Shown here one piece after another: positions 14,701 to 45,712 of a DNA stretch of 45,712 nucleotides (its first letter is position 1; the number at the start of each line of letters is the position of its first letter). This DNA comes from an uncultured Planctomycetales bacterium (GTDB lineage: Bacteria > Omnitrophota > Gorgyraeia > Gygaellales > Profunditerraquicolaceae), in the NCBI GenBank assembly GCA_964487475.1, contig CAZAPM010000001.1:76374-122085 (forward strand), read 5' to 3'. Made by a program: the position numbers.

Positions 14701-17700
14701 TTACCGGCGTGCTCGTCTACGGATTGCTCTGGCCTGTCTCGTTCTGGGATAAACGGACCTTTCAGTACGTGCCTCTTTTTTATTTCTGGGGGGAAGTGAC
14801 GGACCAGACCCCGGAGGAGGACCGCGCGCTGGGCGAATACATCAGGACGAGGAGCACGGAACAGGATAAGGTGTTCGTGTGGGGATTCTATCCGCAGATG
14901 TACATCCACTCCGGCCGCATGCCCGCCTCCCGGTATACCTACTGCACGTTCCTTACCGGGATGCTCATGCAGGCGAACGAGCGTCTGGACGAGGGCACTT
15001 CGCGCTGGATCGTTCCGGGGTCCTGGGATATCTTCATGGCCGAGATGCGGCGCAACGCCCCGCTCTACATCATCGATACCAGCGTCAATAAGAACCTCAC
15101 CTTCCAGAAATACCCTCCCTCGCTTTTCCCTCAGCTGGAAAAGTTCCTGCAGGAGCATTATGCGGTGGACAGTTACTGGAACGACAGCGACGGGATCCTG
15201 CGTTACCGGCTTTTCCGGCGGATCAAGAGCCCGGCATGAAGAAGGTGAAATTCATCACCCTCGGGTGCAAGGTCAACCAGTATGAGACCCAGGAGATGCG
15301 CGAGCAGCTGGCAGCGTGCGGGTACTCCGAGGTCGCCGGCAGGGAGAAGGCGGACCTGTACGTGATCAACACCTGCACCGTGACCCACCGGGCCGATGCC
15401 GATTCCCTTTACGCGGTGGGCAGGGCCAGAAGGGAGAATCCCCGCGGCCGGCTGATCGTCACCGGATGCCTTGCGGGCAAGGACGCTTCCCGGATCGCCC
15501 TGAAGGACCCGCTGGCGCAGATCATCCCCAATTCCGGAAAATCCGGCCTGGCGTCTCTGATCATGGGGTGTGACGTCACTTCCGTGCGGGGTATCTCGTA
15601 TTTCCAGGGCCGGACCAGGGCATTCCTGAAGATCCAGGACGGGTGCGATAATTTCTGTTCCTACTGCAAGGTGCCTTTGGTCCGGGGCAGGTCGGTAAGC
15701 AAGCCGGAGGAACAGGTCCTGGAGGAAGCGCGCCGTCTGGCGGCAGGAGGTGCAAGGGAACTGGTGCTGACCGGTATATGCCTGGGGGATTACGGTAAGG
15801 ATCTCGTTCCCGCGACGAGCCTGGCGCAGGTGTTGCGCCGGGTTTCCCGGATCAGGGGTATCGCGCGCATCAGGTTAAGTTCGATCGAGATGCGGGATGT
15901 GACCGATGAGCTTCTCGGGGTGATGGCGCATTCGCGCCGCATCTGCCCGCACCTGCATATCCCTCTGCAAAGCGGGGATGACGGGATCCTTGCCGCCATG
16001 AACCGCAAGTATACCATAACAGATTACGAAGCGCTGCTGGAACGGGTGAGAAAGGGCCTGCCCCATGTCGCGGTCACCACCGACGTGCTGGTGGGGTTTC
16101 CCGGAGAGACGGAAGTCCAGTTTACGCATACCCTCGACCTGTTGCGCCGGGCAGGGTTCGCGCGCGTTCATGTGTTCCCGTATTCCAGCCGTCCCGGGAC
16201 TGCGGCTGCAAAGCGCACCCGGGACCTTGTTCCGGAGGAGGTGATCCGTCACCGGATGTCCCGTTGCCGTACCGTGGCAGCCATCGGCGAAGCCCGCTTC
16301 AGGGAGAGCCTTCTGGGATCTTCCCAGGAGGTGCTGGTGGAGCGCGCAGTACCCGGAAAACCCGGGGTATGGGAGGGCTATACCGGCAATTATGTGCGGG
16401 TTGAGATCCGTGCAAAGAGGGATCTCTCGAACGCCGTAATTATTTGTAAAATGAACCAGCTAGATACTCCTAATCAGGAAAAAACCATTGACGGAAGGCC
16501 GGAAAAACTCTAATATATAGAAGAGGTGTACATAGCCGGCGGTACCGCTCGGAAGGTGTCGTAAAAAGGAGGGGATATGCGTAAGGTGTTGTTTCTGATC
16601 TGTTGCGGCATTATCGGTTTTTCGTCGCTCACCTCGGCCGTGTGGGCGCAGAACAACGAGGAGATGACGGTGACAACGTACTATCCTTCCCCATTCGGCT
16701 CCTACAACCGGATGGATGTTTCCCGCTCGATCGCTGTCGGGCCTATGCCTGCTGCCAGGACGTATGTGGAAAGTCTTAACAGCGGCGGCGTGACCGAAGA
16801 AGGCACGGTCTATACCAGTGGTTCGAACTCCTGTTTCGTGTTCCAGGCCAGGCAAAGCCCCAGGCGGTTCGGGTGGTATAGCGGCAACGGCGAGGTCGCG
16901 TGGCTGTGGACGGATTCACCCGTCGCACCTGCGGGCCCGAACGGGAACGTGTTCGGGGTAGAGCGTAACGGCAGGGTATACTGGTTGGCTACTCCGTCGG
17001 GACATCCGCATCTGGCAACTATCGGGATCGAGTAACAGGGGCGCTGCGCGAGGAGAGGGATGAAGAGTCCGGTGATCAGGGTCGATACGTTTGTGGACGG
17101 TAGTGAGTATGCGGTGCTGGAGATACATCAGGGAGTATACGACCTTAAAACGATCCAGGCCGCGGGGTATGTGTTCCTGGATAAAGCGTATATATTGCTG
17201 GATATGAACGAGCGGCAGCGGATCGAGGTGTACCTTTTCCCCAAGGATAAGGCCATGGATGCCAAGACCTGCGCGTTGGAATTCAGTAACGAGCTGGTGA
17301 ATTACGCGCATTATTTTACCCGGGTGGAGAGCAACGCCGAGGTTTCCAAGACGATTATGCAACGGGTATTGTTTTCGGTGAACCCGAAAGCGGCGAGCGA
17401 AGCCGAGGAGCAGGAGATACAGGAGCTGCTCAAAGAACTGGAAAGCGAATCCGCGCCCCGGAAAAAGAAGAAGCGATAAGGGATATTATGCCTTTGCCCG
17501 TATACGTGAAAGGTAATAAGTTCAGCCTGGTGCTGCATGGGAAGTGTTACCCGGAAGCGGTATGCGCCCGTTTTGCCGCAGAGCAGGGCGCGTATATGGA
17601 AAAGCCCATGCAAAAGAAAGGCTCTTACACTATTGTGCCGCTGAAGGTTTCCTCATTGCAGGATGCGCTGGAACGCGCCAATTACCTGCTTTTCCTTACC

Positions 17701-44700: not shown

Positions 44701-45712
44701 GAGGTCAAGGTATGAGCGGCGATCTTCCCGTCGTATATGTGAAGGAGTTCGGTTGTCCGACCATGAAGAGTTTCGCCCGCACGCTCGCAGGAAAACTGAC
44801 CGCACGCGGTTTTCTCGTGCTGCCTACGCAGGACCAGGGGCCTTTGAGTATGGGAGGGGAGGAGTTCCGTCGAGCCTTACGTGCTTCCGTGTGTATCTTC
44901 TATACGTGCGGGATCGTGGATTTCTGTGAACGGCAGATCGGCGCCTATATGAAAGAGGTTGTGGAAAAGAACCCTCTCGCGAGAATTGTCGTCACGGGAT
45001 GCAGTGCGGACCGTTTTGCGGCGATGCCGGGGGTGCTGCTGGCGACTCAGGAGGAGGGAGCGATCCTTCGTGCTTTGCGGCGCTGGTTCCCCGGTCGCCG
45101 TCCGGGTGTTTCCGTGACCCGCAGTACACCGGTCCGGAAGGAGGAGATCTTGGTCAAGAGCGGATGCACGAAGTTCTGTGCATACTGTGAGGAGCCTTTT
45201 CTGCGCCGCGGTTCAGGGACGCTCTGTCGTTATGAACGCGCGGAGTCGATCGTGCGCGCCGTCCTGCGCTCCCAGCGTAAAGGGGCGAGGGAGGTACAGC
45301 TTGTCGGGGTCTGCATCGGGGATTGGCGTGATCCTCTCACGGGGATGCGTTTGGACGGGTTGTTGAAGCGGATACTGCGCGAGACGAACGTACGGATCGT
45401 GGGGCTGGAACTTCATCCGCGGGATTGTACCGCGCAGATCAGGAAGCTGCTTTCGCACGAAAGGGTCGGCAGGAAGATCTCCGTTCCGGTGGAAAGCGGT
45501 TCGACACGCGTACTGCGACGCATGAGGAGGGGGTATACGGCCGTTCAGGCGCGCCGCCTGCTCCAGGAGCTCGTGCGCGAGGTCCCCGGTATCTCTATTT
45601 CGACTGATATCATCGTTGGTTTCCCGGGGGAGACAGAAAAGGATTTTCTCGCTACCTGTGCGTTGGTCACCAAGTTTCCTTTTGAACGAGTGTATGTTAT
45701 GCGGTATAATGA

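Follow-up and report, generated by a model that had tools for sequence, protein, structure and literature searches.

Two tandem His-Xaa-Ser peptide clusters in an Omnitrophota genome, each with its own predicted FlaK-like A24 leader peptidase

Peptidases of the A24 family are the processing enzymes of pilins and archaellins, and small-genome organisms of the Patescibacteria type are usually considered biosynthesis-poor. The closest described counterpart of the locus analysed here is the antiphage system HXS, with the gene order HxsD-HxsB-HxsC-HxsA (TIGR03976-03979); antiphage activity and a +8 Da modification count among its defining traits. According to the article text, 99.7% of HXS systems occur in Pseudomonadota and more than 99.8% have four genes, E. 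coli HxsA is processed by the four-gene system without an A24 enzyme, and the basic repeats are modelled to bind DNA (Li et al. 2026, PMC13128918). The repeat-core radical SAM RiPPs TVG and TIG resemble our locus in combining a short precursor of repeated motifs with radical SAM/SPASM maturases, and the parts of the articles that describe their clusters name no A24 enzyme (PMC9062424, PMC10878394). Kinship with the TVG/TIG cyclopropyl synthases was rejected, the GYW motif being found in none of the 18 radical SAM enzymes of our locus.

The window, that is, the whole stretch analysed, comprises 45,712 nucleotides (contig positions 76,374 to 122,085) and contains most of a 35-kb island that extends over contig 92950-127823 between mtaB and recA. 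This island is composed of two tandem His-Xaa-Ser clusters of separate ancestry, A and B, which take up 1.9% of the 1.87-Mb genome and each possess their own HxsD, HxsB, precursor and A24 peptidase, the two peptidases being of different lineages. The survey's finding had described one run of genes headed by two HxsD-HxsB-precursor modules, with 17 radical SAM genes and two A24 peptidases. Both modules and both peptidases were recovered, whereas the single continuous cluster was rejected on the basis of the HxsB and A24 trees and of promoter matches before cluster B. In these trees, the neighbours of HxsB1 are the kin genome G019 and archaeal HxsB, and A24 A groups with G019 and archaeal A24 sequences; HxsB2 groups with Elusimicrobiota HxsB, and the nearest neighbours of HxsB2 and A24 B differ. 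The two forward-strand sigma-70-like matches (33771..34008), identified by consensus matching alone, agree at 12/12 positions (33771-33799) and 11/12 positions (33980-34008). The radical SAM count is corrected to 18 CxxxCxxC ORFs across contig 92950-127823, seven in A and eleven in B, of which 13 are complete inside the window, one is cut at its end and four lie past it. MtaB (15236-16513) is left out of this number; it passes TIGR01579, adjoins rsmE in 24 of 25 relatives and was rejected as a cluster member, being a housekeeping gene.

Cluster A, on the forward strand except for its peptidase, is headed by a secreted protein of the 'TTYYPSP' family (16577..17035), which could be a feature of the site and not of the system, because it also follows mtaB in relatives that lack the cluster. 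It is followed by HxsD (17060..17479), whose sole match is TIGR03976 (31.7 bits, cut-off 50), a small ORF without family match that by its position may correspond to an HxsD-like gene (17488..17706), the radical SAM/SPASM protein HxsB1 (17703..19124, start refined; TIGR03978 371.8, cut-off 370) and precursor A (19128..19562). A Cys-rich protein with a signal-peptide-like start (19559..20377, true start likely at about 19595) has an orthologue after the precursor in G019 as well. Further downstream lie a glycosyltransferase-28-like protein (20411..21622; PF04101 28.2 vs 22), a DegT/DnrJ/EryC1/StrS aminotransferase (21619..22734; PF01041 260.9), a fusion of a deacetylase-like domain with a radical SAM domain (22751..24448; PF10096, PF01522, PF04055), a radical SAM/SPASM protein (24441..25601), a radical SAM protein with a PapB-like best match (25589..26617) and a 327-aa protein without family match (26610..27593), which by eye we take to be GNAT-like. 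Two methylthiotransferase-like radical SAM genes (27598..28698 and 30302..31459; TIGR00089 190 and 149.9 vs 251) have 459 identical bases in common (28147-28605 and 30857-31315), which may reflect gene conversion or an assembly artefact, and enclose an APH-type phosphotransferase (28708..29559; PF01636 38.5) and a SAM-dependent methyltransferase (29556..30305; PF13649 44.8). A24 peptidase A, FlaK/PibD-like and with both catalytic Asp kept, is encoded on the reverse strand (31404-32468, also delimited as 31404..32315; PF01478 27.4 vs 26.5), and the last radical SAM gene of the cluster (32368..33729) has an orthologue adjoining A24 in G019. The glycosyltransferase, aminotransferase, deacetylase-like domain, kinase and methyltransferase, together with the His-rich precursor cores, might suggest that the product is a His-rich, metal-scavenging peptide (metallophore), or that a large part of cluster A is devoted to another small molecule of sugar or nucleoside type, unrelated to the peptide. 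We consider this distinctly unlikely, given that the island genes scanned include no transporter or receptor family match, that the sugar-type genes accompany the precursor module in G019 as well, and that, in some of the precursors bearing the leader, the core is rich in Cys and lacks HxS.

Cluster B, also on the forward strand within the window, begins with a second secreted 'TTYYPSP' protein (34043..34666), for which an Atlas look-up gave clusters of Elusimicrobiota without a name, and leads to phage tail fibres below 0.9. No RNA record was listed for 35000-39000, which carries no weight in either direction. HxsD (34679..35068; sole match TIGR03976, 41.9 bits, cut-off 50) is predicted to form a small beta-alpha-beta-beta-alpha domain; since the only matches of this model are widespread small alpha/beta folds (best Z 6.8), it points to no function. 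Next come an HxsD-like small protein (35062..35274; NF038315 30.3 vs 41), the radical SAM/SPASM protein HxsB2 (35271..36728; TIGR03978 451.3 vs 370), a Cys-rich protein with a signal-peptide-like start (36725..37372), whose family occurs near the precursor in eight loci, and precursor B (37391..37750). The tailoring genes comprise radical SAM proteins with PapB-like best matches (37791..38939, 42611..43663 and 43663..44715), two HemN-like radical SAM candidate methyltransferases (38932..40329 and 40326..41714) and a candidate aromatic prenyltransferase (41701..42618). The latter is a weak lead: its Atlas matches (0.95-0.96) are to clusters in which 12% of members have DUF5838 or 41% have PTase_Orf2, with a recognition value of 1277, below 2300. 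A methylthiotransferase-like radical SAM gene is cut at the window end (44712..45712, ending at contig 122239). Past the window follow a PapB-like radical SAM gene (contig 122220-123263), a 292-aa protein in loose alignment (20%) with 41701-42618 (contig 123260-124138), two genes with HxsC4 as best match (contig 123982-125040, 152 bits, and contig 124947-125960, 143 bits; cut-off 500), an HxsC-like gene (contig 125809-126885) and A24 peptidase B (contig 126885-127823; PF01478 17.8, below cut-off, with a FlaK-like model), after which comes recA.

The claim that the locus has no HxsC thus holds within the window and with regard to cluster A, but not for the island, as three HxsC- or HxsC4-like genes end cluster B. 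The protein at contig 125809 has TIGR03977 as its best match, covering profile positions 31-289 of 292, and scores 156.7 bits against a cut-off of 267.9, compared to 375-419 for three canonical HxsC copies. In a 148-sequence tree, its clade is sister to seven canonical HxsC, with a support of 0.876 and of 0.953 at the next node. Because of these best matches and this placement, and with HxsC-like genes present in 45 of 74 mapped loci, we rejected the absence of HxsC as a distinguishing mark. The marks of the variant are instead the leader, a dedicated A24 peptidase and an expanded, variable tailoring set. Like HXS, the locus has His-Xaa-Ser repeats and an export signal in its precursors, and N-terminal processing is to be expected. 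What does differ from HXS is the arrangement: the island does not show the canonical four-gene order D-B-C-A, its order being D-(D-like)-B-precursor, and HxsC relatives stand 11-13 kb downstream (B; about 12.7 kb from HxsB2 for the HxsC-like gene) or are missing (A). In relatives, too, the gene after HxsB is the precursor and not HxsC, and their records are titled Patescibacteria, Omnitrophota, Elusimicrobiota or small archaea, which bears out the view of a peptide-modifying variant of small-genome microbes that is distinct from the four-gene antiphage system.

An antiphage role comparable to E. coli HXS, in which a matured HxS peptide outside the membrane blocks incoming DNA and A24 accounts for the N-terminal processing, would have its first four steps in common with the reading that we favour and differ in the role of the product. 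HxsB scores above cut-off, relatives of HxsD and HxsC are present, and HxsB is patchily distributed (3 of 60 kin genomes), with different HxsB lineages at the same post-mtaB site in G018, G030 and this genome, which resembles a defence hot spot. However, we saw no peptidoglycan-binding domain in the precursors, precursor A has one HxS, and the repeats are not basic: as the middle residue of HxS in 120 homologues, Ser was counted 388 times, Gly 333, Ala 128 and Arg 16. Moreover, a set of up to 14-18 radical SAM genes together with sugar enzymes is more than the four-gene system needs. Altogether, we regard a defence function of this kind as rather unlikely.

We next consider the precursors themselves. 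Precursor A (144 aa) scores 23.2 against 65 for HxsA3, and precursor B, with ten HxS and a Gly-Gly-Trp-Cys tail, scores 45.2 against 65 for HxsA3 and 45.1 against 55 for HxsA4. The NCBIfam models HxsA3 (NF038309), HxsA4 (NF038313), HxsC4 (NF038332) and HxsD-like (NF038315) are the best matches for precursors and accessory genes; window proteins stay below every cut-off, while several relatives (L026, L027, L021) pass HxsA4. Neither precursor matches TIGR03979 (HxsA), which the control L069 passes, or any Pfam family, in agreement with the reported lack of a peptidoglycan-binding domain. The FLxxEEG leader ascribed to both is present in precursor B, whereas precursor A reads FMKDESG. Repeating the scan of 70 HxsB loci gave a leader-type precursor in 54 (earlier 55) and A24 in the fetched stretch in 20 (earlier 16). 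In sequence terms, three parts can be read in the precursor, a hydrophilic, Flp-prepilin-like leader up to Gly, an export signal up to Ala-x-Ala and then the His core; the predicted scissile Gly lies at 19209-19211 in A and 37511-37513 in B. Gly-1 is conserved in 94% and Phe-7 in 100% of 103 matched leaders, both partly fixed by the search pattern, and a second Gly is conserved at +11 (95%). Precursors and Flp prepilins have the Phe-7 to Gly-1 register in common. A scoring matrix built on 26 Flp leaders placed 70 of the 90 precursor leaders above the 99th percentile of a background of 37,411 decamers ending in Gly, a result favoured by the selection of these leaders with a motif fixing Phe and Gly; type IVa pilin leaders ranked as high in 3 of 21 cases, and in the reverse test 9 of 26 Flp leaders exceeded this percentile. 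Ala-x-Ala precedes the His residues in 92 of 119 precursors, mostly 26-30 residues past Gly, compared to a shuffle mean of 9.4.

Behind the leader, the precursors depart from pilins. In known class III signals, some 21 hydrophobic residues stand immediately behind Gly (PMC4471445), whereas only one of the 119 precursors has a hydrophobic residue at +1 and the hydrophobic stretch begins at about +10, which makes the predicted Gly-1 site non-canonical. Unlike Flp/TadV substrates and other class III proteins, the candidate substrate continues past Gly with basic residues and only a brief hydrophobic stretch, carries Ala-x-Ala as a second site and is therefore not a pilin. Consistently, of 30 Pfam families matched by 70 precursors the 25 listed include no Flp or N-methyl family, Glu+5 is found in 12 of 119, and the median best 19-residue hydropathy is 1.52; a pilin identity was rejected on the lack of a pilin family among those listed, the +1 residue, the hydropathy and the Ala-x-Ala site. 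A modified pilin that stays in the membrane after leader removal, as a decorated subunit of or on a type IV/Tad filament, could nevertheless explain the Flp-like leader and the neighbourhood of pilus genes. Type IV pilus genes occur in ten non-canonical loci and in G145, a pilus operon ends 5.5 kb upstream of the island here, and three of the extended Patescibacteria loci have the cluster between pilD and further pilins. Since seven pilus-adjacent loci are one lineage, a pilus ATPase-like gene also lies near 1 of 10 canonical loci, and the residues past Gly are those described above, we judge it very unlikely. Tat export was also rejected: Lys-Lys occupies the twin-arginine position in 44 of 119 precursors, Arg-Arg is not among the 12 commonest pairs, and TatC was not found in this 94.6% complete genome. 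As a single case, the true twin-arginine precursor L060 comes from the sole TatC-positive genome of five tested and has no A24 match.

Across genomes, the link between A24 and the leader-type precursor is near-obligate. It had been taken to concern a minority of loci; however, the 10-kb flank used was too short and undercounts A24, because the gene is as a rule the last of the cluster, 13-32 kb farther downstream. Of 38 genomes that have the leader-type precursor but no A24 at the HxsB locus, 32 encode a member of the A24 clade elsewhere (31 full length, one fragment) and six gave no match, compared to 0 of 10 genomes with adjacent HxsB-HxsC and no leader; these counts overstate the link, since related genomes are not independent. 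Among 60 kin, a strong A24 match was obtained in two of three HxsB-positive genomes and one weak match in the 57 HxsB-negative ones. In 151 genomes of one Patescibacteria class, all three HxsB-positive members have A24, and in the other two A24-bearing genomes A24 adjoins HxsC-like genes on contigs that end upstream. The gene stands at or near the end of 13 extended clusters and directly before HxsD in five archaeal loci, plus a sixth found from the A24 side. The clusters span 22-32 kb in four Patescibacteria genomes of 0.7-0.8 Mb.

Both catalytic Asp are invariant in 19 of 19 A24 sequences. The aspartate pair, a GxGD-type motif and a FlaK-like predicted fold are shared with FlaK (PDB 3S0X); unlike FlaK and Flp/TadV, the A24 genes here lie within a radical SAM cluster. 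The A24 B model aligned with 3S0X at Z 12.2 and rmsd 3.2 over 167 of 186 residues (next match 6.5), FlaK being reached only by this wide structural alignment, as the A24 profile found no PDB sequence and a Foldseek search of PDB produced nothing at E <= 0.001. Archaeal A24 C-terminal domains occur in 4 and 2 of 19 members, and the A24 alignment is too variable for scanning loci; a single A24 query returned six loci only. Tree distances of HxsB and A24 correlate (rho 0.67, 35 pairs, 0/2000 permutations), an association that is overstated by the relatedness of the genomes. Modelling A24 B with residues 1-75 of precursor B gave a weak complex score of 0.55 against 0.00 for the best control (contacts agreeing to 74% or more, partner pLDDT 58 or more); of 157 solved pairs, 116 came up to the mark, but only 18 of the 157 at 0.60 or under, and among 215 mismatches two did so, both at 0.60 or under. 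The predicted complex thus lends weak support to the pairing.

Based on these data, we propose, with a probability of about 0.6, that each FlaK-like A24 peptidase cuts its cognate precursor after the leader Gly, leading to export of a modified His peptide. By analogy to E. coli HXS, the His core would first be the cytoplasmic target of HxsD and HxsB, joined in B by the HxsC-like enzymes. Lineage-specific decorations could then be added by the PapB-like, HemN-like and methylthiotransferase-like radical SAM enzymes and a possible prenyltransferase in B, and by the glycosyltransferase, sugar aminotransferase, kinase and methyltransferase in A; with a precursor of leader-core layout and enzymes clustered around it, the product is a candidate RiPP. 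A24 would remove the leader at the inner membrane face, leaving a basic-hydrophobic-Ala-x-Ala signal, and Sec with signal peptidase I would likely free the mature peptide outside, as no TatC was found. An extracellular interaction molecule for competition or host contact is the most likely role and the least supported step. Cleavage may alternatively take place at the conserved Gly +11, and the Tad-like locus on contig C5, without own peptidase among the ORFs listed, is a possible source of other A24 substrates; a housekeeping PilD is encoded elsewhere in the genome. It is also conceivable that the leader is a mere HxsD/HxsB recognition tag, resembling Flp by chance, and that A24 cuts at Gly +11, neighbouring secreted proteins or Tad pilins. 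The non-canonical residues past Gly, the second Gly, the Tad-like pilins on C5 and the low complex score are compatible with this idea, which we nonetheless find doubtful: a pattern scan revealed no pilin-like ORF in the island, the 57 HxsB-negative kin lack a strong match to A24 of the clade, and A24 follows the leader type and not HxsB as such.

If cleavage by A24 applies, its participation in radical SAM peptide maturation would represent a new kind of leader peptidase and directly link pilin and RiPP biology. In a more speculative extension, which we consider improbable, a private prepilin peptidase would serve as an export lock for a large class of hypermodified His peptides in small-genome bacteria and archaea: the Flp-prepilin-derived leader would stay in place until as many as a dozen radical SAM enzymes had acted and then be cut off, the product would be delivered at a pilus-bearing surface as host-contact or competition effector, and the four-gene antiphage HXS would be a stripped-down branch. 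Within the searched literature, which included few subscription papers and no supplements, we found no role of A24 or prepilin peptidases for radical SAM RiPP precursors, no naming paper for HxsA3, HxsA4, HxsC4 or HxsD-like, and no paper treating radical SAM enzymes and type IV pili together in Omnitrophota. HXS itself was represented by the paper, its preprint and passing mentions; supplements of PMC13128918 may list non-canonical loci, and the pertinent text of the general BGC survey PMC9902471 contains nothing on such Hxs systems. The precursor family would offer short, simple substrates for work on HxsB/HxsC chemistry. The leader profile matches 871 clusters at 50% identity and is thus a usable mining tag, reaching clusters with 5-18 radical SAM enzymes.

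The island between window position 16577 and contig position 127823 was described in the survey's finding as one run of genes, headed by two HxsD-HxsB-precursor modules and containing two A24 prepilin peptidases. Both peptidases and both modules are present: the two HxsB genes (17703-19124 and 35271-36728) score above the curated cut-off, and the two HxsD genes and the two precursors (precursor A, 19128-19562; precursor B, 37391-37750) have the expected best matches at scores below theirs. The run itself separates into two clusters whose HxsB and A24 proteins group differently in trees. 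Cluster A (16577-33729) contains seven radical SAM genes, sugar-type enzymes, a kinase, a methyltransferase and the peptidase A24 A (31404-32315, minus strand); cluster B (34043 to contig 127823) contains 11 radical SAM genes and A24 B (contig 126885-127823). The cluster A HxsB groups with that of the kin genome G019 (support 1.00) and two archaeal loci (0.98-0.99), and A24 A pairs with the G019 A24 (0.89) within a mostly archaeal clade (0.97). Of the ten G019 genes with a counterpart in the island, nine have it in cluster A; the remaining one, the G019 A24, has A24 B as its best BLAST match, yet A24 A as its tree partner. The HxsB of cluster B groups with copies from Elusimicrobiota (0.97), and A24 B with copies titled as Omnitrophota and Planctomycete (1.00). 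Each precursor module is thus served by a separate A24 gene. A perfect sigma-70 consensus, a match to the consensus alone, lies 5' of cluster B. Two methylthiotransferase-like radical SAM paralogues with divergent N-terminal halves share 459 identical bases in frame (28147-28605 and 30857-31315), which points either to gene conversion in the recent past or to misassembly. The island also encodes two orphan proteins (41701-42618 and contig 123260-124138), the first of which is, on its language-model features, a candidate aromatic prenyltransferase.

In total, 18 radical SAM reading frames of the island carry a CxxxCxxC motif, one more than the 17 counted before, and the reported absence of HxsC does not hold for the island. 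The final three radical SAM genes, located in cluster B past the end of the window, best match HxsC4, HxsC4 and HxsC. The last of them scores 157 bits, compared with 375-419 for three canonical HxsC copies, and belongs to an 11-member clade, the sister group of seven canonical HxsC (support 0.876), whose members lie directly 5' of an A24 gene or a few genes before it. Of 74 mapped loci, 45 contain HxsC-like genes, with two to nine per cluster in the 12 extended relatives that have HxsD first; cluster A has none.

Precursor B, used as a query, matched 144 homologues; the analysis covered the 120 that were listed. Combined with the two precursors of the island, 103 of 122 sequences matched a first anchor pattern numbered from the leader glycine (Phe-7, 100%; Glu-3, 99%; Gly-1, 94%; Gly+11, 95%), and a wider pattern matched 119 of the 120 homologues. 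The glycine is followed by about nine residues of median charge +3 and, from near +10, by a short hydrophobic stretch, a segment that resembles a twin-arginine signal with lysines. An Ala-x-Ala precedes the histidines in 92/119 precursors, most often between +26 and +30; shuffled sequences gave a mean of 9.4 and a maximum of 18. The core consists of His-Ser/Gly/Ala-Ser repeats, and the last residue is usually Trp, Cys or Tyr (89/120). No TatC was found in this 94.6% complete genome or in four of five other genomes checked; the fifth (L060) has TatC and no A24 match, and its precursor (4243-4698) combines a true twin-arginine signal, with a genuine Arg-Arg motif, and an altered leader. Signal peptidase I is present in the genome. 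At L040, L042, L046 and L047, up to three tandem His/Asn-rich precursors of 270 residues per locus have divergent leaders.

We compared the leaders with a matrix built on 26 Flp leaders, using 37,411 decamers as background. Seventy of 90 distinct precursor leaders exceeded the 99th percentile and 22 the 99.9th, as opposed to 3 of 21 type IVa leaders, a result favoured by the leader-selection pattern, which already sets Phe and Gly. The score of precursor A is matched by hardly any background decamer (fraction 3e-5). Run in reverse, the comparison was weaker (9/26 Flp leaders). Downstream of the glycine, the precursors differ from class III signals as defined in PMC4471445, with a hydrophobic +1 in 1/119 and Glu+5 in 12/119. 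A leader-only profile matched 871 representative clusters at E <= 0.001. Among the 141 new matches listed, 80 had at least three His-Xaa-Ser motifs and 32 had none; some listed matches are Cys-rich, some have larger domains, and at least two look spurious. By eye, P0207 and P0251 append a Hint (intein-like)-looking domain and a short aromatic tail to the leader and His-Xaa-Ser core. P0170, P0222, P0243 and P0252 share a larger C-terminal domain.

Both catalytic aspartates are invariant among 19 aligned A24 members, 15 of which match Peptidase_A24 in Pfam, with archaeal C-terminal domains in four and two. A model of A24 B (pLDDT 72.9) matched FlaK (Z 12.2, rmsd 3.2, 167/186 residues), while Foldseek and a PDB sequence search returned no match. 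A predicted complex of A24 B with precursor B (0.55 versus 0.00 for the best control) gives weak support for their association. PilD is encoded separately, and only A24 A, A24 B and PilD fit our search pattern for GxGD-type reading frames. At 53628-66542 and 72875-95977, contig C5 carries a Tad-like locus with several Flp-like pilins, and no peptidase among the reading frames listed, and then a 7700-residue reading frame.

The A24 gene travels with leader-type precursors. It lay inside the fetched stretch at 20 of 70 HxsB loci; 16 of these copies, plus that of G019, built the A24 profile and are circular as linkage evidence. Whole-genome searches for the remaining 50 loci and two kin matched A24 in 35/52: in 32 of 38 genomes with leader-type precursors (one match a fragment; exceptions L009, L015, L023, L046, L060 and G030), in three of four whose first stretch held no precursor, and in none of ten with adjacent HxsB and HxsC and no leader. 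Among 60 control kin, a strong match occurred in two of three HxsB-positive genomes and a weak one in 1 of 57 HxsB-negative genomes, on a 3-kb contig where its neighbour is a dnaJ-like gene. In one Patescibacteria class, A24 was present in five of 151 genomes and HxsB in three of these five; in the other two, A24 adjoins HxsC-like genes and the contigs end upstream. The 12 extended relatives place A24 13-32 kb after HxsD, with 5-14 intervening radical SAM genes, and G018 places it directly after the precursor. HxsB and A24 tree distances correlate (rho 0.67, inflated by shared ancestry). Several Patescibacteria clusters (L009, L012, L014, L018, L023, L024, L027 and G145, L133-L134) abut a type IV pilus operon, and L012, L024 and L027 have further pilins after A24.

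Beside the directly observed gene content, ancestry, linkage, catalytic residues and precursor layout, we propose a processing pathway, to which we assign a probability of 0.6. By analogy with E. coli, HxsD and HxsB, with HxsC where present, would modify the His core in the cytoplasm; variable enzymes of the cluster may add further decorations; A24 would cut after the leader glycine; and Sec export would precede release by signal peptidase I. In the E. coli HXS study (PMC13128918), HxsC is bound to HxsD and a mass change of +8 Da is located on a His-Arg-Ser repeat. The island's maturation core would work alike, but the island falls outside the canonical antiphage system: tests of whether HxsC adjoins HxsB, of the domain structure expected of HxsA and of the gene order all came out different. 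The tailoring set also varies by cluster (U32 proteins, diphthamide-synthase-like proteins, B12 and HemN-like radical SAMs, glycosyltransferases), a variation more in keeping with extracellular molecules that diversify than with a four-gene device of fixed make-up. We consider defence improbable and tentatively prefer competition or host contact; because the readings have processing steps in common, our estimates do not sum to one. In a Patescibacteria cluster arm (G145:C2, L133-L134), what looks by eye like a PKS/NRPS pair, a 2044-residue PKS-like and a 634-residue adenylation-like gene, lies beside HxsC-like genes. The parts are partly catalogued, since HxsA3, HxsA4 and HxsC4 models already exist in NCBIfam; our literature search of main texts found no publication on these models or the A24 link. 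The locus contributes two clusters of different lineage in tandem, each with a peptidase, linkage counted over whole genomes and set against controls, and an HxsC-A24 pair at the cluster end.

The window covers C1:76374-122085 of a 1.87-Mb genome whose host likely belongs to Omnitrophota, the phylum named for most of the best relatives of its MtaB. Upstream of the island lies a type IV pilus operon (851-11032), and after it come tRNA-Ala, an AMMECR1/Memo gene, rsmE, a glycosyltransferase and mtaB; recA lies immediately beyond the island. The Memo-AMMECR1 fusion gene (11266-12837) has a long open frame overlapped by tRNA-Ala, and its true start is likely downstream of the tRNA. At 25 relatives' mtaB loci, chosen out of 80, neither HxsB nor HxsD was found; recA comes right after mtaB in L149, and in L145 a TTYYPSP gene stands between the two. 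This arrangement suggests that the island was inserted at an mtaB-recA site. HxsB clusters of different lineages likewise follow mtaB in the kin G018 and G030. Three secreted proteins (16577-17035, 34043-34666 and contig C1:56983-57417) share the N-terminal TTYYPSP motif, with no convincing Pfam match and weak phage tail-fibre look-alikes. In many loci of Omnitrophota and Elusimicrobiota, the family lies 5' of HxsD; it is also seen after mtaB where there is no cluster.
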